Source: Candidatus Omnitrophota bacterium (GTDB lineage: Bacteria > Omnitrophota > Gorgyraeia > Zapsychrales > Zapsychraceae). From it: 64,000 bases of DNA. Numbering within the stretch: the stretch's first letter is position 1; each line of letters begins with the position of its first letter. Position numbers and translations under genes: made by a program. A model generated the notes under the pieces. The model saw nothing but the letters and a program-made list of their open reading frames with translations, did not search any database and was not told the origin of the DNA. The stretch spans positions 18,746 to 82,745 of the forward strand of contig DPIG01000078.1 of assembly GCA_003522725.1 (NCBI GenBank), given 5' to 3'. This document shows positions 5,209-15,054 of the stretch, one piece after another.

Positions 5209-5771
5209 ATTGCCTTTACCTGTTTATGTGTTTGTTGTTTGGTTGTACTGTTATCTATGATAATATCCGCGCGGCGGATTTTGTCACGTAACGGCATCTG
5301 CGCTTTGATGCGGCGCAGCGCCTCCGTGCGTGTTATTTTTAAAGACCTGCGGGAACGTTCGATCTGACTGCGCCTTGAGGCGGCGACCACGATGGTCGTG
5401 TCCACGTAACGGTTGAACCCGGCCTCGAACAACAACGGGACTTCGATAACCGCGATTTCTCCGCCCCGGTATTTTTTTAACTCTTCGTTAACGCCTGATC
5501 GTACCGTTGGATGGACGATTCTTTCCAGACGTTTTAATTTGCGCTTGTCGTTAAAAACAACGGCTGCCAGTTTTTTGCGGTCGATACCGCTTTCGCCGGC
5601 GATCTGCGTCCCGAAAGCACGGATGACCGGCGCGTAACAGCATCCGCCGCGGCGGAGTTCCCTGTGGACGATCCTGTCCGCGTCAATGACCTTCGCGCCC
5701 AGCCGCGCGAACATCGCAGTCACGGTTGACTTTCCGGTTGCCAAACCCCCTGTCAAGCCGACAACAAGCAT
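5175..5771 (-). CDS. coaE: Dephospho-CoA kinase
   Basis: [18 protein letters not shown]-loop at the N-terminus. Start placed at ATG 5769-5771; the ORF track's longer N-extension overlaps glgA. Confidence 0.8.
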
Positions 5772-7162
5772 TGGTATACCTTGATGTATTCCCCGGCCGC
5801 GTGCTCCCACGAAAAATCCGCGGCCAACGCGTTTTGCCGCAAAGTGTAGAATTTCTCCTGGTCGCCGTAGATATCGATCGCCTGGCGCAGCGCCTGAAAA
5901 AAATCTTTTTTCGTGAAACGGTTGAACAAGATCCCGTCGCCTTTGGAAAGCGCGGCGTTGAAGGATTCGACCGTGTCCGCCAGCCCGCCGGTCTTAAAGG
6001 CGATCGGGACCGTGCCGTAGGCCATGCTGATCATCTGGCTCAAACCGCAGGGTTCGAAGCGCGAAGGCATCAAAAAGAAGTCCGCGCCCGCGTAAACCTG
6101 GTGCGCCAGAGAATCGTTAAATTCGAAATTGGCCCATATCTTCTTCGGGTATTTGTCCGTGTACGCCTTGATCTGTTTTTCGTACTGCCGCTCACCGGTC
6201 CCGAGCATGACGACCTGGACATCCAGGGCTAAAAACTGTTCCATCACCTCCAGGATCAGGTCCACGCCTTTTTGGTGGACCAGGCGGCTCACGAACGCGA
6301 ACAGCGGCGCGTCGTCGCGCTGCGGCAGTTTCAGCAGCTGCTGCAGTTTTGCCTTGTTGGCCGTTTTCCCGTGCATCAGCTCGTCTTTCGCGTATGTTCG
6401 CGCGATCTTTTGATCGGTCGCCGGGTTCCAGACATCGTGACTTATGCCGTTGATGATCCCCTCGACCGGCTCCCGCCGCGACTTCAACACACCCTCAAGC
6501 CCGCACCCGAACTCTTTGGTCAGGATTTCCTTCGCGTATTGTTGGCTGACCGTGGTCACCTTGTCGCTCGCGACGATCCCGCCTTTAAGGAAGTTGATCT
6601 GGCCGAAATATTCCAGATAATGCGCTGAATTGTACGTTGCCGGCAAGTTCAATTTCGGATAACGCTCCCGCGGGAACACGCCCTGGTGCGCCATGTTATG
6701 GATCGTCAAAATGGTCCTGGCCGATGCCAAAGAACTGTTTTTGTACTGATCTTTCAAATAGATCGGGATCAGCGCCGTGTGCCAGTCGTGGCAATGGATG
6801 ATGTCCGTTTTTTTCCGGAGTTGTTCAAGAGTCTTTAAGACCCTTGAACAAAAATACTGAAACCGTTCCAGATTGTCCGGATAATCGTCGCCGTTGTCCC
6901 CGTAGATACCGTCGCGTTTCCCGTAATAGTCGTGCTCGATGAAATAAACGTCCAGGTTCGGCGAAAGAACCGCGCGGGAAAGGTGCTTGTCCACCGGCGT
7001 GATGCCGAATTTTTTCGCGTCGATAAATTTATAACGCGGTAAAAGGATCGTGACTGAAACGTCCCTTTTGGCCAATGCCAGCGGCAATGAACCGCACACA
7101 TCGCCAAGTCCGCCCGTTTGAGCGAAGGGGACCGCCTCCACGGCGCAAAAAGTTATATGCAT
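5753..7162 (-). CDS. glgA: Glycogen/starch synthase (GT5, ADP-glucose type)
   Basis: N-terminal KTGGLGDV motif (AQTGGLGDVCGSLP), 469 aa. Confidence 0.85.
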   Translation of the reverse strand: MHITFCAVEAVPFAQTGGLGDVCGSLPLALAKRDVSVTILLPRYKFIDAKKFGITPVDKHLSRAVLSPNLDVYFIEHDYYGKRDGIYGDNGDDYPDNLERFQYFCSRVLKTLEQLRKKTDIIHCHDWHTALIPIYLKDQYKNSSLASARTILTIHNMAHQGVFPRERYPKLNLPATYNSAHYLEYFGQINFLKGGIVASDKVTTVSQQYAKEILTKEFGCGLEGVLKSRREPVEGIINGISHDVWNPATDQKIARTYAKDELMHGKTANKAKLQQLLKLPQRDDAPLFAFVSRLVHQKGVDLILEVMEQFLALDVQVVMLGTGERQYEKQIKAYTDKYPKKIWANFEFNDSLAHQVYAGADFFLMPSRFEPCGLSQMISMAYGTVPIAFKTGGLADTVESFNAALSKGDGILFNRFTKKDFFQALRQAIDIYGDQEKFYTLRQNALAADFSWEHAAGEYIKVYQCLLSA

Positions 7163-7163
7163 C

Positions 7164-9698
7164 TCATGCTTCTTTCGTCTCCAGCCAGTTCGCGCCCGTC
7201 TTGACGCTCACCTTGATGGGCACGGATAATTCCATTTGTGTTGCTTCCGGCGACACAAATGGGTGTTCCATCCGCCCGCGTAATAACTCAACGACCTCTT
7301 CTTTTTCTTCGCCAGGCACGTCCAGGACCAGTTCGTCATGAACGGTGATCAAGATCTGTGATGCCAGCTTGCGCTTTTTGATCTCGCGGTGGATATCGAT
7401 CATCGCCAATTTCATCAGGTCCGCCGCGGAACCCTGCACCGGCGTGTTGATCGCCTGGCGCCGGGCGAATTGTTTCATGGATTCGTTGGGGCTGTTGATC
7501 TCCGGAATATAGCGCCGGCGGTTCAGCAATGTCGTCACGAACCCCTTCTCTTCGCACTGGCGGATAGCGTTATCCATAAAATCCTTCACCTTCGGGTAAC
7601 GCGAGAAATATTTGTCAATGAACTCTTGAGCATCGCTTTGAGAGATGCCCAAGTCCTTGGCCAGGCCGAACGCGCTCATCCCGTAAATGATGCCGAAATT
7701 GACGCGCTTGGCGTTGTCGCGCATCTGCGGCGTCACGTCTTTTTCCGCGACATCAAAGATCAATGACGCGGTGTACGCGTGAATGTCCTGGTTCTCCTGG
7801 AAGGCCTTCACCAGTCCGGGGTCGCGCGTGATGTGCGCCAGGATGCGTAATTCAATTTGTGAATAATCCGCGGCCACGATCACGTGACCGGCCTTCAAAG
7901 GAATAAACGCCTTGCGGATCTCGCGGCCCAGCTCGGTGCGGATCGGGATATTTTGTAAATTCGGCTGACTCGAACTCAACCGCCCCGTTTCCGTTCCGGT
8001 CTGATGGAACAGCGCGTGGACGCGCCCCGTTTTCGGGTTGACCAGCGCGGGTAAGGCGTCGATATAGGTCGATTTGAGTTTCGCCAGCTGACGGTATTCT
8101 AAAATAAGCGCCGGGACCTCGTGCTTTGGCGCGAGGACGGTCAAAACCCCTTCGTCGGTCGAAAAACCCGTTTTGGTTTTCTTGACCGTGGGTAGTTTCA
8201 AATCTTCAAAGAGCACCCGGCTTAATTGCTTCGGGGAGTTGAGATTGAATTCTTTGCCGGAGAGCCGGTAAATCTGTTGCGTCAAATTCCCGATCTTGCG
8301 TTCACATTCTTTGGAAAGCCCGTGCAGCAACGCGATGTCCAGCTTCACCCCGCAGATTTCCATGTCCGCCAGAACGAACGCCAACGGAATTTCGATTTCG
8401 CTGAGTAGCTTTTTCAGGGATTTCTCCTTCACCTCTTTGCTCAAGACCGGGTACATCTCCCACAACAGGGCCGCGCGGCGCGCGGGCGGCTGTTCCATAA
8501 AATTCAATTGAGCTTGCGGATTGCCGGCCAGATACCCGGCCAGAAAGACGTCGAAAACTTTTCCTTCCAGCGCCACGTCTTGCGCTTTGAGCAGTTTGAC
8601 GGTTTCTTTCAAGTCGTACGTGACTTTTTCGATTCCCTTGTCCTCGAAGACCTCTTTCCAATCCGCCATCTGATCGAGGGTGACCGCGCAATGTTCCGTT
8701 GGGCCGCTCGAAAGGATCAATTGCCGCGCCGCGCCCTCAGCCAAAACGGCGAAACGTCCGGCCGTTTTGATTTTCCTAACCCACTCCCCGATCTTTTCTT
8801 TATCCGCCAACGGTTGAACATCGGGGTGTGCTTCTTCGGTTTGACCGGCCGCGGCGAGTTCTTTGGCGAACCGGTGGAATTCCAGTTCCTGGAACATCTC
8901 GAGCAGGCGGTTTTGTTGGGGTTCTCTGACCTTCAAGCATTCCAGTCGCAGATCAAGCGGTACTCCGGTTTCCAGGACAGCCAGCTCCTTGCTTAAAACA
9001 GCTTGTTCCCTGTTTTGTTCCAACTTTTCACGTACCTTTGCCGATTTGATCTTGTCCAGATGCCGGAAGATGTCCTCGAGACTGCCAAAATCATTGATCA
9101 GTTGCCTCGCGGTCACTTCGCCGATGCCTTTGACCCCGGGAATGTTATCCGCATTGTCCCCGGCCAACGCGATGAAATCCGTCATCCGGCGCGGGTCGAA
9201 CCCCAAATGTTCTTTGAGCGTCTGGTATTCCCAGATAGCGTCTTTGCGCGCGCTAAAAAAAGACATGCGCTCGCCGGCCAACTGATACATGTCCTTGTCA
9301 TCGCTGACAATGACGACTTCGATATCTTTGTCCTTCGCGGCGCGCGCGATCGTGGCGATGATGTCATCCGCCTCGAACCCGGGCGATTCAAAGAGCGCCA
9401 GGTTATACGCGGTCACCACGTCCTTGATCACGGGCATCTGGTCGATCAGGTCCCGCGGCATGACCGGCCGCTGGACCTTGTAGGCGTTAAATTTTTCCTG
9501 GCGGTGCGTCTTGCCCGGGGAATCGAAACAAACGGCCATGTATTGCGGCTGATACTCCCGCAGGATTTTGCGCAGGGTGTTCACGAAACCATAAACCGCG
9601 TTTGTCTGCCGGCCCTTGCTCGTCGACAGGTCCTTGATGGCGAAGAATGAGCGGTAACACAGCGCGTGGGCATCGATCAAAAATAGCTTTGCCGCCAT
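7164..9698 (-). CDS. polA: DNA polymerase I
   Basis: 5'-3' exonuclease N-terminus (LIDAHALCYRSFFA), polymerase motifs (RRAAKAINFGLIYGMSAFGL, HDELVLD), 844 aa. Confidence 0.9.
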   Translation of the reverse strand: MAAKLFLIDAHALCYRSFFAIKDLSTSKGRQTNAVYGFVNTLRKILREYQPQYMAVCFDSPGKTHRQEKFNAYKVQRPVMPRDLIDQMPVIKDVVTAYNLALFESPGFEADDIIATIARAAKDKDIEVVIVSDDKDMYQLAGERMSFFSARKDAIWEYQTLKEHLGFDPRRMTDFIALAGDNADNIPGVKGIGEVTARQLINDFGSLEDIFRHLDKIKSAKVREKLEQNREQAVLSKELAVLETGVPLDLRLECLKVREPQQNRLLEMFQELEFHRFAKELAAAGQTEEAHPDVQPLADKEKIGEWVRKIKTAGRFAVLAEGAARQLILSSGPTEHCAVTLDQMADWKEVFEDKGIEKVTYDLKETVKLLKAQDVALEGKVFDVFLAGYLAGNPQAQLNFMEQPPARRAALLWEMYPVLSKEVKEKSLKKLLSEIEIPLAFVLADMEICGVKLDIALLHGLSKECERKIGNLTQQIYRLSGKEFNLNSPKQLSRVLFEDLKLPTVKKTKTGFSTDEGVLTVLAPKHEVPALILEYRQLAKLKSTYIDALPALVNPKTGRVHALFHQTGTETGRLSSSQPNLQNIPIRTELGREIRKAFIPLKAGHVIVAADYSQIELRILAHITRDPGLVKAFQENQDIHAYTASLIFDVAEKDVTPQMRDNAKRVNFGIIYGMSAFGLAKDLGISQSDAQEFIDKYFSRYPKVKDFMDNAIRQCEEKGFVTTLLNRRRYIPEINSPNESMKQFARRQAINTPVQGSAADLMKLAMIDIHREIKKRKLASQILITVHDELVLDVPGEEKEEVVELLRGRMEHPFVSPEATQMELSVPIKVSVKTGANWLETKEA

Positions 9699-9881
9699 CG
9701 TTTTTTTAAAAGATTTTGTTGTATCTGGAAGTCACAACTGGTTTGTTTGCCGTAGTGCAGAACAACTGCCGTACCGAACGCTCAACCCCGGGTTACATGC
9801 AACCTTTCACGCGATGCTCATCAACTATTTTAAACGCACTTCCCGGAAGCAACAGGATGAAAGGTAAAAAGAGGGTACCCA

Positions 9882-10256
9882 AATTTTACGACCGTAAAAT
9901 TTGCCCCGAAGGGGTTGCACGTTCAAATCCCTGCGGATTTGAACGTGCTTGCAAGGTAATCCCGGATTTTTGACCTTTATTTCTTGGGGGTTAAAAATTT
10001 GGGTTACCTCGGCAAGCGCGATTAAATCTTTTCTAGATTTAATCGGCCGACCCCCTCTGCTTTAGGCAGGGGCGGATTTTTCTATCGAAAAATCCGGGAT
10101 AAGAAGAACTATTTTCTCGGCGAACCACTACCTTAAAACAACATGCTAAGCATAATATATAAATAAAGCTTTGGCAAGGAAAAGTTTAGGAGTTTTATTC
10201 GCCCTTGGAAAGGGTTCCGGCGAATAACCCCCAGCGCTTTGATTTACGAAGTAAAT
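9882..10256 (-). other. Palindrome-dense noncoding region between polA and the upstream oxidoreductase gene. Candidate structured sRNA or regulatory region.
   Basis: At least 7 perfect or near-perfect hairpins. Five of the perfect ones: GATTTAC-GAA-GTAAATC (10236-10252), TTATTCGCC...GGCGAATAA (10196-10227), GGATTTTTC-tatc-GAAAAATCC (10073-10094), CGATTAAATCT-tttct-AGATTTAATCG (10020-10046), CACGTTCAAATCC-ctgc-GGATTTGAACGTG (9919-9948). A possible -35/-10 (TTGCCA...TATATT) sits near 10150-10185 on the minus strand. Confidence 0.35.
9893..9950 (-). terminator. Candidate intrinsic terminator on the minus strand
   Basis: On the minus strand a 13-bp stem is followed by CCCC-TTC-GGGG and then CAAATTTTA. 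It would end a minus-strand transcript that starts in the 10.0-10.27 kb region. Confidence 0.35.
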
Positions 10257-10270
10257 CAGCAGGGGGTGCG

Positions 10271-11230
10271 CTAACTAGCATTACTGTCGGCCATTTTGGG
10301 AGTCTTAAGCGCCGCGGCGACGGTTGCTCCCTGCTCTTCAAGCACGGTCACCAGCAGGAACCCCGCGTTTTCCTGCCCCGGGGCCGCGCCCGCCTCCTGG
10401 CGAGGCACGCAGGCGGCGTCCAGCGCGAAAACGCCTTCGATCCCGGTCTGGAACTGTTCGTTGACGCGGATCTTGCCGTCGGTGGTGACCGCCGGATCGG
10501 TCAAGACCCTGAAATCGACCGGCGCGTCCGGGAAGATAATGATCTGCGCCGCCAATACCTTGCCCGATTTAAGCCGGATGGCCTTCACGTCCCCTTCACC
10601 CAATATTTCGGCGATCGGATTCGCGGCAACCACACGCAGTTTGTTTTCCTGTCTGGCCCCGGTCAGCTGGCCGGTCGTATCCGCGTTCAGCAAGTCCTGC
10701 GCGATTTGGTCGCTGGTGACCACCCAGATGACCTCCTTGTCCCTTTTCAGAAATGCCGAAGCGATCGATACCCCGCGTGGGGAATCCGACTGGACCACCA
10801 CCGCGTCGATCAATGGCAGAAAGTCGAGGATCTGGTCGAGCTCGGTCAATTGCTGGAGCGTGTAAACACCGTTTTTATTCACACCTTTGATCTCGGGCAG
10901 TTTGTACCCGGGCGCGTCGGTGATAATCAGGACGTCGCCTTCGAAGGCCTGCTTGTCATCGGTCGTGACCTTGCATTTTTTGAGGTTGATGCGCGCGATT
11001 TTCTTGCCCGTCACGACATTGACGCGGTTTTTCTCGTAGTAGTCGTTGGGTTTGTAAAATATCTTTTTGTAATCGACCTCTTTGGCCAAAACGGGCGCGA
11101 ACAAGCCGCGGTCATAGGGATATTCGCCGTCGGTCAAAATGGTCGTCTCGCAGTCGGGCGCGAAGCGCCGGATCTCCTCGATGGCCCTGACCCCCGCGAT
11201 GGAACTGCCCAGAACAAGTATCTTTTTCAT
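10271..11230 (-). CDS. FAD-dependent pyridine nucleotide-disulfide oxidoreductase family protein with a degenerate second dinucleotide-binding motif
   Basis: Start at ATG 11228-11230 with RBS GGAGG. The N-terminus MKKILVLGSSIAGVRAIEEIRRF is a GxGxxG-type FAD fold. The expected second Rossmann motif is replaced by VVVQSDSPRG. 320 aa. The 403-aa ORF-track extension would overlap folD. Confidence 0.6.
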   Translation of the reverse strand: MKKILVLGSSIAGVRAIEEIRRFAPDCETTILTDGEYPYDRGLFAPVLAKEVDYKKIFYKPNDYYEKNRVNVVTGKKIARINLKKCKVTTDDKQAFEGDVLIITDAPGYKLPEIKGVNKNGVYTLQQLTELDQILDFLPLIDAVVVQSDSPRGVSIASAFLKRDKEVIWVVTSDQIAQDLLNADTTGQLTGARQENKLRVVAANPIAEILGEGDVKAIRLKSGKVLAAQIIIFPDAPVDFRVLTDPAVTTDGKIRVNEQFQTGIEGVFALDAACVPRQEAGAAPGQENAGFLLVTVLEEQGATVAAALKTPKMADSNAS

Positions 11231-11231
11231 A

Positions 11232-12107
11232 TTACCTCTTCGCCTCCTGCTGGACCTTGAACGCTTCAATACCGTTACGCATGAGCATGACGACGGTGAC
11301 CGGGCCCACCCCGCCGGGCACCGGCGTGATAAATGACGCCCTCCGGCCCGCTTTTTCAAATTCGATGTCGCCTGTGATTCCGGAGCCCACTTTATTGATC
11401 CCCACGTCAATGACAATGGCGCCTTCCTTGATCCAGTCCCCTTTGATGAGCCCCGCTTTCCCCACCGCGACGACCAGGACATCCGCGCTCCCCACGTGCT
11501 CGACGAGCCGTCCGGCCTGGCTGGTGGCCAGATGACACACGGTGACCGTGGCGTCCTGCGCGAGCAACAGCAAACTCAAAGGTTTGCCGACGATCTCGCT
11601 GTGGCCGACCACGACCGCTTCTTTCCCGCGCAGTTTGACGCCCGTGGAGCGGATAAGTTCCATGACCGCGGCAGGGGTGCAGGGGATGATGCGCGTTTGG
11701 CCCAGCATCATCTTGCCGATATTGGTGACGTTGATGCCTTCGAGGTCCTTGGACGGGGCCACATAGTTGGCCACGGCGCGGTAATCGATCTGGTCGGGCA
11801 CGGGTTTGTGGATCATGATGCCGTGCACGCCGGAATCGCTATCGAGTTCCTTGATGACGCTGATCAGTTTGGCCTGGGTCGTGTCCCCCGAAAGGATCTT
11901 CAGTTCATATTTGATGCCGATATATTCGGCCGTCTTTTTCTGGGAATTGGCGTAGGCGCAGGAACCTGGGTCGGAGCCCACCATCACGTTGACCAGGTGC
12001 GGCACGCCGCCAAAGGTTTCTTTGAGCCGCGCCACTTCCTTTTTGAGCTCGTCCTTGAGCTTTTTGGCCAGGGCCGTACCGTCAAGGATGTGCGCGGTGG
12101 CGTTCAT
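11232..12107 (-). CDS. folD: Bifunctional methylene-THF dehydrogenase / methenyl-THF cyclohydrolase
   Basis: ILDGTALAKK..., motifs (VGSDPGSCAYANSQKK, PCTPAAVMELI, VVVGHSEIVGKP), 291 aa. Confidence 0.92.
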   Translation of the reverse strand: MNATAHILDGTALAKKLKDELKKEVARLKETFGGVPHLVNVMVGSDPGSCAYANSQKKTAEYIGIKYELKILSGDTTQAKLISVIKELDSDSGVHGIMIHKPVPDQIDYRAVANYVAPSKDLEGINVTNIGKMMLGQTRIIPCTPAAVMELIRSTGVKLRGKEAVVVGHSEIVGKPLSLLLLAQDATVTVCHLATSQAGRLVEHVGSADVLVVAVGKAGLIKGDWIKEGAIVIDVGINKVGSGITGDIEFEKAGRRASFITPVPGGVGPVTVVMLMRNGIEAFKVQQEAKR

Positions 12108-12589
12108 TGGTTGATCTCCACGTTGAGCTTCGCCGAATTAAACGCGGCGAGCAAAAGTTCCAGCGCGACCTTCACGTCCGAAACAAGATATTTGTTGCCG
12201 TAGCGAACTAACGTCGGCGCCAATTGCACGGCTTTGTAACATAGTTTGCATGCTTCCAGAGGGACTTCCCTTGCCTTGCGCCGGGCCGCGTTACGCTTCG
12301 CGGGCGCGGCCTTGCGCGTTTTGACAACGTTCAAATACGCCCGCGCGTCCAGGTCAACGAGCGCCAAAAAACGTTTGCGCAATCGCTCGCTCGTCTTGAG
12401 ACTTGCCTTTATCTTTTGTTCATTGGCACGCGATGAGGTCTTACCGAGCGAATAATTCGCGACCATGGACAGAAGCGCCGCCCCAAGCGCCGCCGTCACC
12501 GCCGCCGCCGACCCACCCCCCGGCGCGGGGACCTTGAGCGAGAGCACGCGCGTGTATTCACTTAAACTGTAATTTCGAAAGGGTTTCAT
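12104..12589 (-). CDS. Cyclodeaminase/cyclohydrolase family protein (FTCD C-terminal-like; FchA-type methenyl-THF cyclohydrolase)
   Basis: GGGSAAAVTAALGAALLSMVANYS motif typical of the formiminotransferase-cyclodeaminase C-domain. Overlaps folD by 4 nt (ATGA). Confidence 0.7.
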   Translation of the reverse strand: MKPFRNYSLSEYTRVLSLKVPAPGGGSAAAVTAALGAALLSMVANYSLGKTSSRANEQKIKASLKTSERLRKRFLALVDLDARAYLNVVKTRKAAPAKRNAARRKAREVPLEACKLCYKAVQLAPTLVRYGNKYLVSDVKVALELLLAAFNSAKLNVEINQ

Positions 12590-12716: not shown

Positions 12717-13487
12717 TTATTCAACTTCAAAGGCGTTTTTATCGTGTATCTTTTTCTTCCGAGATTCCCATGTTTGAAAAAGGAATGTAGCCATCGTCCC
12801 GGAAAGATTAACTGCAAGTTCCGCATGCCGTGGTGCTGGCCGGCTCCCTGATACCCCTTTGCCATGCGCATCACTATGTCGGTTTCGTAAAGCGCCTAAT
12901 CCTTCAACGACACTCTGGCAACCACCCAATATCTGTTTAAAAATTTGCTCTGTATGTTGGCTCGGTGAAAGATTAAGCTGTCTGACGGTCAAAGTGTAAA
13001 GTTTGGGGAGGTCGACATCATTGCTATATGTTATGCCTGACTCATCAAGTATATGCTTGCATGCAGATTCAAGCAGCGTGCGAGCTGTTGTAATCGCACC
13101 CTCAGGGTCAGCAGCTCTGCGTTCTAATGCTTTTTGCCAAATTTCTTGAATGTAGGTTGAATCCAAAGTCTGCACAGTTGCGGAAATTGAAGCGTCGCTT
13201 GGCGTGCGTGAATCGGTTTCTAGTGTAGTCAGGAGCGGATCAAACTCTTGCTGTAAGTACCCTCTTCGTTGAGCATAGGTTGCGAATTTCGGCTGAATGA
13301 AACTCCAGAATTCAGAAAGGTTGCGACATGTGTGGACAAAACGAGGTAGTAGCTTTGCAATACGCGGAGATGTAATAAGTTCACGACGTAAATTTTTGTA
13401 TTCCAAGTCGTCACCGTTACCACCGGTCGCATGTGAAACTAGCATTATCTTCAGTGATTCAACTTGATTAATTTTTTCTTCATTCAT
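12717..13487 (-). CDS. Abortive-infection-like protein with a C-terminal HEPN (Abi_C-type) domain
   Basis: The C-terminus (TLLESACKHILDE...LPKLY...LGALRNRHSDAHGKG...RHAELAVNLSGTMATFL) fits the Abi_C/HEPN pattern, with an Rx4H motif (RHSDAH). The gene is visibly AT-rich compared with its neighbours. 256 aa. Confidence 0.65.
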   Translation of the reverse strand: MNEEKINQVESLKIMLVSHATGGNGDDLEYKNLRRELITSPRIAKLLPRFVHTCRNLSEFWSFIQPKFATYAQRRGYLQQEFDPLLTTLETDSRTPSDASISATVQTLDSTYIQEIWQKALERRAADPEGAITTARTLLESACKHILDESGITYSNDVDLPKLYTLTVRQLNLSPSQHTEQIFKQILGGCQSVVEGLGALRNRHSDAHGKGVSGSRPAPRHAELAVNLSGTMATFLFQTWESRKKKIHDKNAFEVE

Positions 13488-13490
13488 GTC

Positions 13491-13597
13491 GTATTATTCC
13501 GCGTTATTTCGGGCGTCTTTGTATTATTCCGGGGACGCGTACTCTCTCTGCGTTATTCCGGCGTTATTCCGCAGGTTATTCCGAGGTTATTCCGGGG
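13491..13597. repeat. Array B: seven copies of the (G)TTATTCCG(G) repeat, the last four in tandem with an 11-12 bp period
   Basis: TATTATTCCGCG GTTATTTCGGG...TATTATTCCGGGG...CGTTATTCCGGCG TTATTCCGCAG GTTATTCCGAG GTTATTCCGGGG. It lies immediately 5' of the Abi gene start. Confidence 0.7.
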
Positions 13598-13710
13598 CCA
13601 CATGACGTAACCTTAATTATTGCCGATTGTGTGTCTTTGCAGACGCTTTAGCTAAGTTCCTGGCTTTGCGTTAATTATAAAACAAATCTTTCACTTCGTG
13701 TTGAGTATTT

Positions 13711-13745
13711 CGGCCCCGCTGTAAGTGGCCCCCGGGCCGCTTTTT
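13711..13745 (+). terminator. Possible plus-strand intrinsic terminator with no plus-strand gene upstream
   Basis: CGGCCC...GGGCCG stem (6 bp, GC-rich, alternative pairings possible) followed by CTTTTTG. The minus-strand complement has no U-tract. Confidence 0.3.
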
Positions 13746-13806
13746 GAATTCGTGATTTTAACATAATTTGAATTCTCGCCGTTCGGCAAGAATTGACTTT
13801 ACAGCT

Positions 13807-14028
13807 TTAACGATAGCTGGCGTGTGTGCCGATATCGTAATAAATCACCTCGTGGGCGTTGATGAAACGAAACAGCACACGGTACTCCCGATTAATGGAA
13901 TACGCCCAATAGTCTTTCAGCGGTCCCTTAAGCTTGTGCGTTCGCAGGGGCGGTGTAAAAGCGTTGTCCCGGAATAACTGGTCTTTCTTGATGGCCAGGT
14001 CTTGAATATGTGTTGGGAGTTTCTGCAC
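13807..14028 (-). CDS. RelE/HigB/YafQ-like mRNA-interferase toxin, N-terminally short, no cognate antitoxin evident
   Basis: LKGPLKDYWAYSINREYRVLFRFINAHEVIYYDIGTHASY matches the conserved C-terminal half of HigB/YafQ-type toxins. The only start is a GTG and the frame closes 6 codons upstream. No HTH antitoxin ORF in the 300 bp downstream. Confidence 0.5.
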   Translation of the reverse strand: MQKLPTHIQDLAIKKDQLFRDNAFTPPLRTHKLKGPLKDYWAYSINREYRVLFRFINAHEVIYYDIGTHASYR

Positions 14029-14075
14029 AATTTGAACTCCCGATAGTCAGCGGAAATCTGGATTTCTAAGGTCTT

Positions 14076-14327
14076 CTAATAGACATCTTTACGATGGCCG
14101 ACGTGCAGAATGACCACCTTTTTATCCCGGTCATGGATATCGTAAATAACGCGGTAACGCCCGACACGGATCCTCCAGCCGGGACGGGCGATCAGCTTCT
14201 TGCTGCCGTGAGGGCGCGGGCTGGAAGAAAGTTTTTCGATATGCTGGCATACACGCTGATAATCAACGGCAGGCAGTCCGGCGAGCTCTTTTTGCGCGCG
14301 GCGAAGGATAAAAACGCTGTAGTTCAT
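14076..14327 (-). CDS. relE: Type II toxin, RelE/ParE family
   Basis: IRVGRYRVIYDIHDRDKKVVILHVGHRKDVY C-terminal signature. 83 aa. Overlaps the upstream antitoxin by ATGA. Confidence 0.8.
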   Translation of the reverse strand: MNYSVFILRRAQKELAGLPAVDYQRVCQHIEKLSSSPRPHGSKKLIARPGWRIRVGRYRVIYDIHDRDKKVVILHVGHRKDVY

Positions 14328-14527
14328 TTGCGGGAGCGTTCAATTTCTTTTCTGGCTTGGGCGAACGGGATGGATTCCTCGCCGGACGCCTTGGCCGCGT
14401 CATAAGCTCGGATGGACTCGAGCTCTTCAGCCTGCCTGATGAGTCGGCGATATTCCCTGTTGGTCAGGACGACCCCCACCTGGCGGCCATGGGAATCAAC
14501 AACATGATTCTCTTTTATTTTAATCAT
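14324..14527 (-). CDS. Type II antitoxin, Phd/YefM-like
   Basis: MIKIKENHVVDSHGRQVGVVLTNREYRRLIRQAEELESIRAYDAAK... Start placed at ATG 14525-14527, preceded by AAGGAG. The ORF-track TTG start at 14554 is less likely. Confidence 0.7.
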   Translation of the reverse strand: MIKIKENHVVDSHGRQVGVVLTNREYRRLIRQAEELESIRAYDAAKASGEESIPFAQARKEIERSRK

Positions 14528-14636
14528 GGGCACTCCTTTTTTCAAAAGTTTCAAAGGTCATCCCTTTGGTGAATGACTCGACTTTTTCAATGGCATCGAC
14601 AATATCGGCGACATAATCCCGGTATTGACGGATCAT
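14520..14636 (-). pseudogene. Remnant (38 codons) of a HepT/HEPN toxin gene, truncated where the Phd start codon begins
   Basis: Minus-strand translation MIRQYRDYVADIVDAIEKVESFTKGMTFETFEKRSAHD* matches the conserved N-terminus of HepT (DUF86) toxins. Its ATG overlaps the MNT stop (ATGA), the typical MNT-HepT coupling. The frame is cut by a TAA that overlaps the Phd ATG. Confidence 0.6.
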
Positions 14637-14926
14637 ACGTAAACAACCTCACGCATGATGTATTTACCGATAGTAGGCTTTAACGAACCTTTCATGACGA
14701 GATCAACGCGTTTTTTCAATATGGCGCTAAGGCGGTTTTCCGTCCGGACATAATCGAAAAGGCCGGGGGTCTGGCTGAATTCAACGAGGATGTCGACGTC
14801 ACTGTTCTTTTTTTGCTTTCCACGCACGTAGGAACCAAAGACACCCAGCATCTTGACCTTGAATTGTCGCTTCAGGGCGGATTTGTTCTGTTTTAAAACT
14901 TGTTTGATTTTATCCAGTTCGCTCAT
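14633..14926 (-). CDS. Minimal nucleotidyltransferase (MNT) antitoxin of a HepT/MNT pair
   Basis: GVFGSYVRGKQKKNSDVDILVEF is the GS...DxD pol-beta-type NTase motif. About 97 aa. Alternative TTG start at 14932. Confidence 0.75.
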   Translation of the reverse strand: MSELDKIKQVLKQNKSALKRQFKVKMLGVFGSYVRGKQKKNSDVDILVEFSQTPGLFDYVRTENRLSAILKKRVDLVMKGSLKPTIGKYIMREVVYV

Positions 14927-14992
14927 AGTCAAAGTATATCATAATTATCTGCCTGCCGATGAAAGCATTTTTACGTTTTTCGGGCTGTTTTT

Positions 14993-15014
14993 GGTTATTC
15001 CGTGGTTATTCCGG
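14993..15014. repeat. Array C: two tandem copies of GGTTATTCCG(G)
   Basis: GGTTATTCCGT GGTTATTCCGGG, immediately 5' of the MNT gene and adjoining the 15013-15054 inverted repeat. Confidence 0.6.
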
Positions 15015-15054
15015 GACACAATACTTAACTCACAGCAATTAAGTATCGTGTCCC
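15013..15054. repeat. 16-bp near-perfect inverted repeat spanning the symporter stop codon
   Basis: GGGACACAATACTTAA-(10 nt)-TTAAGTATCGTGTCCC, one mismatch. No U-tract on either strand. A related half-site lies at 22793-22815. Confidence 0.6.

Follow-up and report, generated by a model that had tools for sequence, protein, structure and literature searches.

A probable MITE-like insertion in the polA leader of an uncultured Omnitrophota bacterium and its family of hairpin-rich relatives

Miniature transposable elements with inverted repeats (MITEs) of the IS630 type are exemplified by the Correia elements of Neisseria and the RUP elements of pneumococci, and those of the IS5/PIF-Harbinger, or 'Tourist', type are associated with TWA duplications. 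A 3-bp TWA duplication is a hallmark of the PIF/Harbinger-Tourist elements and of some groups within the IS5 family, and duplication of TA is a hallmark of IS630/Tc1-mariner. Among palindromic repeats, the repetitive extragenic palindromes (REPs) are 20–40-nt units with a conserved GTAG-type head that occur in hundreds of copies and are not known to create a target duplication, and insertion sequences (ISs) of the IS200/IS605 type have sub-terminal hairpins at ends that are not inverted repeats, and insert 3' of a fixed tetra- or pentanucleotide with no duplication. The enterobacterial repetitive intergenic consensus (ERIC) sequences are likewise not known to have clear target duplications. 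Herein we describe a 222-bp, hairpin-rich block in a 64,000-nt stretch of DNA from an uncultured Candidatus Omnitrophota bacterium (assembly GCA_003522725.1, contig DPIG01000078.1, positions 18,746 to 82,745; this whole stretch is hereafter called the window). The block lies in the 572-bp spacer (9699–10270) between a Pyr_redox_2 oxidoreductase gene and polA, the gene for DNA polymerase I, where an initial annotation had proposed a structured small RNA (sRNA) or a multi-operator region. We consider it likely that the block is a non-autonomous, MITE-like element that entered the 5' leader of polA at a TTA, because it displays the published characteristics of MITEs and because both filled and empty sites are found in close relatives.

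MITEs are defined as elements of less than 500 bp with terminal inverted repeats (TIRs) of 4–30 bp and flanking direct repeats, which are AT-rich, intergenic, and give rise to stem-loop transcripts (PMC10969869; PMC11602168). The block agrees with this definition in its size, TIRs, and target duplication, the last of which is imperfect in the window copy (TTA ... TA), and it also lacks coding capacity. Like the prokaryotic MITEs that duplicate TA, it is small, non-coding, AT-richer, and intergenic, with TIRs, matching T(W)A flanks, and filled and empty sites; like them, it is probably often co-transcribed with neighbouring genes, and its predicted transcript consists of very stable stem-loops. 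In common with ERIC and intergenic repeat units (IRUs), it is an imperfect palindrome in the 100–250-bp range that occupies transcribed intergenic regions in either orientation and accepts internal insertions at defined sites. Unlike the enterobacterial ERIC sequences, it belongs to another phylum, has another sequence, and is a member of a family with target duplications.

Evidence for insertion comes from the polA loci of related genomes, which were collected by a polA-based scan of contigs from one genome per species that yielded 51 loci. The closest of these, L001–L004, are from Candidatus Omnitrophota metagenome-assembled genomes whose polA products share 85–90% amino acid identity with that of the window, and approximately 25 further Omnitrophota loci share 47–66%. 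L001, L003, and L004 have no element at the orthologous site. GTTCTTC-TTA precedes the element in the window, and the corresponding empty site in L004 reads GTTCTTCGTTACATC. A homologous copy with 84% identity is present in the same leader of L002, approximately 150 bp further downstream, at a site that is empty in L001, L003, L004, and the window. At this second site the filled sequence is CTGCA-TTA-block-TTA-ACTAAAG and the empty sequence of L003 is CTGCATTAACTA (over a shorter stretch, GCATTAACTA), such that one TTA has become two that flank the block. The insertion polymorphism expected of a MITE is thus seen at two sites, each of which is filled or empty depending on the relative. BLAST and nhmmer searches of the window and the 51 polA loci revealed no further copies besides that of L002.

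These comparisons also separate the spacer into its parts. On the basis of BLAST searches of the spacer against the polA loci and of an alignment of the spacer (alignment A1), it appears to be an otherwise ordinary intergenic region composed of four layers, namely a set of hairpins after the oxidoreductase stop codon, a promoter-like block, the polA leader, and the 222-bp insertion within that leader. Conservation, the lack of which the initial annotation had named as a refutation, differs between layers: the promoter block is 93–95% identical in L002–L004, and the hairpin block is missing at this site from L001, L003, and L004.

The element itself (9878–10099, minus strand; 5'-TCCCGGATTTTTC ... 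GTAAAATTTGGG-3') has a GC content of 46%, versus 54% for the window, and is a discrete, sharply ended unit that is pseudo-palindromic overall and contains seven hairpins, all given here along the minus strand. It is preceded by TTA (10100–10102), listed among the family flanks as the left copy of the target-site duplication, and opens with the end motif TCCCGGATTTTTC (10087–10099). The hairpin S1hp (10073–10096; CGGATTTTTC-GATA-GAAAAATCCG) forms the left TIR and is followed by P2 (10052–10072; CCCCTGC-CTAAA-GCAGAGGGG), which in most family members takes the form CCNC-GA-GC-GATA/GAAA/GTAA-GC-GA-GNGG, and by P3 (10010–10049), which has perfect inner arms of 11 bp (10019–10045) and an outer stem of CGGC/GCCG. 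A long imperfect hairpin (9955–10008) comprises S2 (TAACCCAAATTTTT, 9993–10006) and S2' (AAAAATCCGGGATTA, 9957–9971). Beyond it lie PB (9917–9948), with perfect 14-bp arms (GCACGTTCAAATCC-GCAG-GGATTTGAACGTGC), the mini-hairpin PC (9904–9914, CCCCGAAGGGG; CCC-C(UUCG)G-GGG), and S3hp (9880–9903; CAAATTTTACG-GT-CGTAAAATTTG), which forms the right TIR. The element ends in GGG (9878–9880), and the TA that follows (9876–9877) is the remnant of the right target-site copy; the family consensus at this junction is GGGA followed by TTA, of which 'AT' is missing here.

The two halves of the element mirror each other. S1hp is the inverted counterpart of S3hp, including, in most copies, the loop (GATA versus TATC); PB is likewise the inverted counterpart of P3, for which the commonest loops are TCGTC and GACGA, respectively; S2 is matched by S2'; and PC is an inverted, shortened counterpart of P2. 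A hidden Markov model (HMM) of the family therefore matches its own reverse complement (E ~1e-30). The TIRs are approximately 27 nt long (TCCCGGATTTTTCGATAGAAAAATCCG at the 5' end; TCCCAAATTTTGCGATAGCAAAATTTG as the reverse complement of the consensus 3' end) and differ from one another at three internally compensated positions. A motif of approximately 13 nt, ATCCCRRATTTTK, occurs four times in the element, as two direct copies on the left and two inverted copies on the right. S2 and S2' are internal copies of this end motif; S1 shows perfect complementarity with S2', as does S2 with the right end. This four-fold arrangement resembles the inverted repeat/direct repeat layout of some Tc1-like elements, and the repeated end motifs would serve as binding sites for a transposase. 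The sole open reading frame (ORF) that overlaps the element (9716–9973, plus strand, 85 aa) has no Pfam match, which upholds the earlier view of the region as non-coding.

The abundance of palindromes that had drawn attention to the spacer is likewise real and far beyond chance. With arms of at least 8 nt and loops of at most 8 nt, the spacer holds five of the 22 perfect hairpins of the entire window; a Markov-1 simulation of the region (n = 2000) gave a mean of 0.16 and a maximum of 3, and the window outside the spacer contains 0.15 per 572 bp. Perfect inverted repeats were found at 9917–9948 (14-bp arms), 9880–9903 and 10019–10045 (both 11 bp), 10073–10096 (10 bp), 10195–10203/10219–10227 (9 bp), and 10240–10258 (8 bp), along with an imperfect repeat with 40-nt arms (9936–10028) and an 8-bp inverted pair (9802–9809/9858–9865). 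Seven of the ten hairpin elements of the spacer sit inside the 222-bp element.

Copies of the element were also identified in metagenomes. Metagenome contigs were scanned with one 20-mer, ACCCCTTCGGGGCAAATTTT, that is identical in the window and L002, such that all metagenome copies were ascertained through this single sequence inside the element. The scan returned 40 loci, 34 of which carry the element, with 70–90% identity over approximately 230 nt by BLAST and nhmmer E-values down to 5e-75. The other six were discarded as unrelated terminator-like hairpins downstream of genes that share only the 20-mer. Nucleotide identity across the family is 72–97%, and copies at distinct loci reach 93–96%. 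Similarity ends sharply on both sides, with flanks that are unrelated among loci, and the ends of the family carry the signature TCCCRRATTTT...AAAAYYTGGGA; in alignment A2 the consensus unit is 5'-TCCCGGATTTTTC-GATA-GAAAAATCCG ... GCAAAATTTGGGA-3'. Including nested modules, the length of family members varies between 225 and 329 bp, the short forms (L068, L083, and L084) retaining only S1/S2' as one hairpin together with PB, PC, and S3hp. Two or three distinct copies were found per metagenome sample, as exemplified by three contigs of Ga0082335, and the locus L083 contains two copies 900 bp apart.

The flanks of these copies argue for target duplication. Most copies have the structure NNN-TTA-TCCC...GGGA-TTA-NNN, with TTA on both sides in approximately 19 loci, and four independent copies (L053, L068, L074, and L086) are flanked on both sides by TAA. 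As L074 (TAA) is 95.5% identical to L087 (TTA/TTA), and L086 (TAA) is 92.7% identical to L054 (TTA/TTA), near-identical copies differ in the triplet that they share on both sides, which indicates that the triplet is derived from the target at either end. Deviating flanks are found in a few old or damaged copies (L056/L065, L069, L079, and L084). Judged from these sequences, the flanks appear to be a genuine 3-bp TWA duplication, and at minimum a duplication of TA. Movement would be expected to occur in trans, through a transposase that makes a 2–3-bp staggered cut at T(W)A. By duplication length, the enzyme would be of the IS5/PIF-Harbinger type or, if TA alone is duplicated, of the IS630/Tc1-mariner type.

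The same block is found in approximately 30 unrelated intergenic contexts. Its neighbours are ordinary chromosomal genes, including lgt, a gene for an rluD-like pseudouridine synthase, typA/bipA, recA, a gene for a fabF-like ketoacyl synthase, pilM, pyrG (CTP synthase), a gene for an lpxL-like lipid A acyltransferase, genes for PKD and tetratricopeptide repeat (TPR) proteins, and tRNA genes. The copy in L073 (L073:142-448) begins 8 nt from a tRNA gene. Relative to neighbouring genes, approximately 17 copies are in the same orientation and 9 in the opposite one, several copies abut stop codons, and no conserved promoter was found upstream of the family copies. Among the metagenome copies only that of L061 is near polA, and there a promoter-like TTGACA-17-TAGTAT, followed by a TPR gene and then polA, is found downstream of the element (L061:657-4069). 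This is the family's third association with the polA operon region and is independent of the other two. Among the compared loci, the best matches of the L061 polA are Omnitrophota (34–47% amino acid identity). The family is apparently spread through Omnitrophota-type genomes, the metagenome contigs being assigned to this phylum solely through the polA similarity of L061, and it appears to be undescribed; no paper that links Omnitrophota and MITEs emerged from a full-text literature search. A search of plasmid and phage collections in distant mode yielded no family match, nor did viral contigs scanned with three end and core patterns.

Longer family members carry additional hairpin modules of 24–70 nt in loops or junctions. 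Among them we observed three kinds of 62–70-nt two-hairpin modules with TCCYG...CRGGA-like ends, nested in some copies (L065:100-162, L060:10868-10929, L002:3616-3677, L071:5966-6028, L061:3838-3900, and L069:785-854), as well as a related module outside the main element (L060:5616-5665). One 63-nt module was seen in both orientations and at two distinct sites; at the same locus upstream of recA, L065 carries it and L056 does not. The nested modules split TTG^C between G and C without duplicating the target, and on this analysis they look like a second class of mini mobile element that is IS200/IS605- or REP-like.

The hairpins of the family are maintained by compensatory base changes, which the initial annotation had listed as a feature to look for in related sequences. 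Of the 63 pairs predicted by RNAalifold, 22 have changed in both partners; pairing extends to 97.5% of cells, compared to 91.5% in shuffled and 28–59% in slid controls, and the observed pairing measures were reached by none of 500 shuffles. Covariation is evident at three pairs in the outer stem of P2 and at four in PB (helix 9), and in P3 both partners vary within the family at 9 of the 13 pairs (helix 5). The window copy has a predicted folding energy of -103.7 kcal/mol in the sense direction (z -10.1) and of -114.0 kcal/mol in the antisense direction (z -11.2), and the alifold energies of the alignment on the two strands are -71.5 and -64.7. That both strands fold equally well follows from pseudo-palindromy at the level of DNA, and of the G-type and A-type end motifs, each long-range pairing gives G-U on a different strand. 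Folding energies, alifold energies, and counts of G-U versus A-C pairs thus single out neither strand as the functional one. The sense strand does contain RNA-like motifs, namely C(UUCG)G and, in P2, tandem G-A with GNRA-like loops; the weight of these motifs is lessened by the mirror-image partners that they have in the other half of the element.

Searches for known RNAs agreed with the earlier view that the region bears no recognizable RNA signature. No match at gathering score was obtained with Rfam 15 in the window or in 30 related loci, where the region was scanned at permissive E-values, the window and 11 polA loci at gathering score, and 19 element loci at E ≤ 0.01. Below threshold, only long-hairpin look-alikes (mir-548, mir-3613, PyrR, and MIR839) and genuine tRNAs located elsewhere were returned, and ARAGORN predicted no tRNA or tmRNA in the window.

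Upstream of the element on the minus strand is a sigma-70-type promoter-like motif, TTGCCA-N17-TATGCT (10149–10177), which forms the core of the conserved block CTTGCCAAAGCTTTATTTATATATTATGCTTA and coincides with the promoter that had been placed at 10150–10185. The extended motif occurs once in the window and was matched by none of 100 shuffles. It is located 132–484 nt upstream of polA in L001–L005, and approximately 860–1000 nt upstream in L007, L009, L010, L012, L014, L019, and L020, as well as in L043, L048, and L051. In L019 it lies between the oxidoreductase gene and a TPR gene that is followed by polA; the gap between motif and polA there holds a 286-aa ORF, which from its own sequence and the Pfam TPR matches of the equivalent ORF in L061 we infer to be this TPR-repeat gene. 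Because the motif is conserved upstream of polA across Omnitrophota and is unique in the window, it is probably the promoter of polA or of the polA operon. We also observed that the motif in the form CTTGCYAAA-N9-11-TATATATTATGCTTA (window 10147–10180, minus strand) is shared by approximately 15 Omnitrophota loci (e.g., L019:5030-5064) and is kept across members of the phylum in which polA is only 55–60% identical, a depth of conservation, spacer-proximal TATATAT included, that we judge unusual.

The first approximately 45 nt of the polA leader (10103–10148, minus strand; …TAGCATGTTGTTTTAAGGTAGTGGTTCGCCGAGAAAATAGTTCTTC) extend from this motif to the insertion point and, together with the promoter block (10103–10195), are 93–95% identical in L002, L003, and L004. 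As the element follows the promoter in the sense orientation and no terminator is predicted on the minus strand, it would be transcribed together with polA, within a 5' untranslated region (UTR) of approximately 440 nt, and would fold into a stack of very stable hairpins. From these sequences, the element is most likely a passenger in this UTR, which in insertion-free relatives measures approximately 130–200 nt. Any effect on polA expression, such as altered mRNA stability, processing, or partial pausing, would be a by-product and not a conserved regulatory design, since the closest relatives do without the element.

The remainder of the leader (9699–9873) contains a hairpin of its own that is not part of the element (9802–9865, minus strand; ACCTTTCA ... 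TGAAAGGT), with an 8-bp stem and a 48-nt loop. The leaders of L002, L003, and L004 share its stem (A/GCCTTTCA ... TGAAAGGG), and in L001 the 5' arm ACCTTTCA is kept and the 3' partner is not visible in the alignment. We observed that in L002–L004 the stem is kept while the sequence of the loop diverges, and this hairpin may be a genuine polA 5'-UTR structure.

Several observations weigh against a MITE-like element. The 0.88 Mb examined, a small sample, contained no autonomous IS or transposase gene that shares these ends, nor did extra pairs of end motifs able to bracket such an IS yield anything convincing there, and no parent IS is known. The copy density appears low, unlike that of prokaryotic TA-duplicating MITEs, with one copy in the 64-kb window and the element in two of approximately 30 Omnitrophota polA loci, and on its right flank the window copy has TA-C in place of A-TTA (GGG-TA versus GGGA-TTA). 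Three insertions are located upstream of polA or its operon (window, L002, and L061), of which those in the window and L002 were ascertained via polA and that in L061 lies upstream of a promoter-like site. The element further differs from such MITEs in that each of its TIRs is a perfect hairpin and that its internal hairpins covary across lineages, and compensatory covariation of this strength has no obvious need in a plain DDE cut-and-paste element. The nucleotide identity of the family (72–97%) also exceeds the conservation of polA in some carriers (34–47% at the amino acid level for L061). Finally, PC is invariant among the matches because it belonged to the search pattern, yet its CTTCGG loop recurs in the divergent second copy of L083, which is without the search 20-mer and therefore lies outside this selection.

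Some of these features would be explained if the element moved by a hairpin-dependent single-strand DNA mechanism of the HUH/Y1 kind, as do REPs, bacterial interspersed mosaic elements (BIMEs), and paired REPs (REPINs) with their REP-associated tyrosine transposases (RAYTs), or palindromes derived from IS200/IS605. Insertion would then take place 3' of TTA or TAA with no true duplication, the right-hand TTA being owned by the element, and the comparison of filled and empty sites fits a duplicated TTA and a TTA-ending element inserted 3' of TTA alike. As with REP, BIME, and REPIN sequences, these are extragenic hairpins in mosaic units and inverted pairs, often past stop codons, with modules that are nested or swapped; each module is a near-perfect hairpin in which pairing is upheld by compensatory changes, and P2 contains mini-hairpins of the GCGAAGC/GCGAAAGC type. 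Sub-terminal hairpins at both ends are shared with IS200/IS605 palindrome elements, and the nested 62–70-nt modules do match the IS200/IS605 pattern in their duplication-free insertion at TTG^C. However, the mobile unit here is a 222-bp block with TWA flanks, it lacks a REP head of the GTAG type, and the neighbourhoods of the copies examined yielded neither a RAYT nor a TnpA gene. Each of its terminal hairpins repeats the other in inverted form down to the loop, which makes them true TIRs, and its flanking triplets vary jointly on both sides in copies that are 93–96% identical to TTA/TTA copies, as target duplication predicts. We therefore regard a single-strand mechanism as unlikely, while keeping it as a live alternative because of the perfect, covarying hairpins and the nested modules without target duplications.

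The two proposals of the initial annotation fare less well. A functional structured RNA on the minus strand, either an independent sRNA gene of approximately 250 nt driven by the motif at 10149–10177 or a cis-acting element of the polA 5' UTR, would account for the position of the block between a conserved promoter-like motif and a start codon, its sense orientation, its very stable predicted fold (z = -10) with strong covariation, the C(UUCG)G, GNRA-like, and tandem G-A motifs of the sense strand, a family conservation that exceeds the expectation for neutral DNA, and an approximately two-fold excess of G-U over A-C pairs in true helices. Unlike sRNA genes and riboswitch-like leaders, however, the block is non-syntenic, is missing from the leader of three of the closest relatives and located elsewhere in that of the fourth (L002), and has transposon-type ends. 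The promoter is probably that of polA, and the block has no promoter or terminator of its own. The proposed minus-strand terminator, CCCCTTCGGGG (CCCCUUCGGGG) followed by CAAAUUUUACGG, is internal to the element, where it corresponds to PC and the 5' arm of the next hairpin, and none is predicted on that strand; a terminator cluster was rejected on the same grounds, and it is on the plus strand that P2, combined with the T-run of S1, is scored as terminator-like. With unrelated neighbours and both orientations represented, approximately one third of copies would be antisense if transcribed, the antisense strand folds at least as well, and the RNA-like motifs have mirror partners. We consider such an RNA improbable. 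An array of operators, at which several dimeric transcription factors would bind the palindromes to control polA, seems to us scarcely credible. There are indeed perfect palindromes between promoter and start codon, but their arms of 10–14 bp enclose loops of 2–5 nt at 50–270 nt downstream of the promoter, they form a single transposed unit that relatives with this promoter and gene lack, they are found next to unrelated genes as well, and sequence drifts while pairing is kept, which is the opposite of the pattern of a sequence-specific operator. A doubtful further possibility is that the family is more than a decaying transposon relic and represents a structured nucleic-acid module that is mobile and has its seven hairpins selected for a function of their own, possibly as an RNA that aids its own mobilization or as a portable 5'- or 3'-UTR module acting as a stabilizer, processing site, or insulator. 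If true, this would cover the recurrence of the C(UUCG)G loop as well as the pervasive compensatory changes and deep conservation, and a portable UTR module would have been recruited repeatedly by Omnitrophota beside housekeeping and DNA-metabolism genes, including polA (three times) and recA. A CRISPR-like reading was also rejected, as only inverted repeats and no direct-repeat arrays were found; for want of such arrays we dropped an oriC or iteron reading as well, in line with the initial annotation.

The MITE-like insertion is set in a conserved neighbourhood. Nearly all genes of the window are on the minus strand. Around the spacer these are an Abi_C gene (12717–13487), the FTCD_C cyclodeaminase gene (12104–12589), folD (11232–12107), the oxidoreductase gene (10271–11482, minus strand; stop codon TAG at 10271–10273), polA (7164–9698, minus strand), and a GT5 starch/glycogen synthase gene (5753–7162). 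The order FTCD-folD-oxidoreductase-polA-GT5, a comparison that the initial annotation had called for, is kept in most of the 51 polA loci.

Two hairpins outside the mobile element occupy the part of the spacer next to the oxidoreductase gene. The compound hairpin T1 (10227–10267, minus strand; ACCCCCTGC-TGATTTAC-TTC-GTAAATCA-AAGCGCTGGGGGT) begins 4 nt past the oxidoreductase stop codon, and T2 (10195–10227, minus strand; TTATTCGCC ... GGCGAATAA), with perfect 9-bp arms, lies directly upstream of the promoter-like motif. Among L001–L004 both are present in L004 only (L004:577-682), where T2 is 100% identical and T1 has compensatory changes in its inner stem (TGATTCGC/ACGAATCA) plus an additional insert of 22 nt. 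When T1/T2 (10195–10267) was checked as a second mobile element, the only matches were L004 and a weak one in L080. These hairpins may be a terminator, a 3'-end stabilizer, or another small insertion.

Elsewhere in the window, a low-GC islet (13488–15038; 0.46–0.48) adjoins the Abi_C gene. Its small minus-strand ORFs include a ParE toxin match (14076–14327; E 1.8e-9), a weak Phd/YefM antitoxin match (14324–14554), and a weak HigB/RelE-like match (13807–14028). The islet is flanked by arrays of the 11–12-nt unit GGTTATTCCGNG, with at least five units at 13516–13596 and two at 14993–15015; the arrays are 96% identical over 23 nt, and an inverted copy of GGTTATTCCGNG is located at 13965–13978. 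This may be an integrated toxin-antitoxin or defence islet with att- or iteron-like repeats. The longest perfect palindrome of the window is a hairpin with 20-bp arms (CAAACCGACAGGGTCGTTTG-CGAA-CAAACGACCCTGTCGGTTTG, 1681–1724), located at the junction of two minus-strand ORFs (397–1707 and 1644–2489).

Collectively, the analysis removes a false lead at this spacer, where there appears to be neither a polA-linked sRNA nor an operator array, and adds a family of probable non-autonomous elements to the mobile DNA of uncultured Omnitrophota, which is hardly catalogued. The family may be of use as a marker of strain-level insertion polymorphism and would explain mis-annotated 'structured RNA' candidates, and it would account for 5' UTRs that are long and hairpin-rich in polA and other essential genes. 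With its hairpin TIRs, four-fold motif, covarying stems, and mini-modules that lack target-site duplications, it would also be well suited to studying the maintenance of palindromic repeats, for which selection for transposition, template-switch correction, and RNA function are competing explanations.

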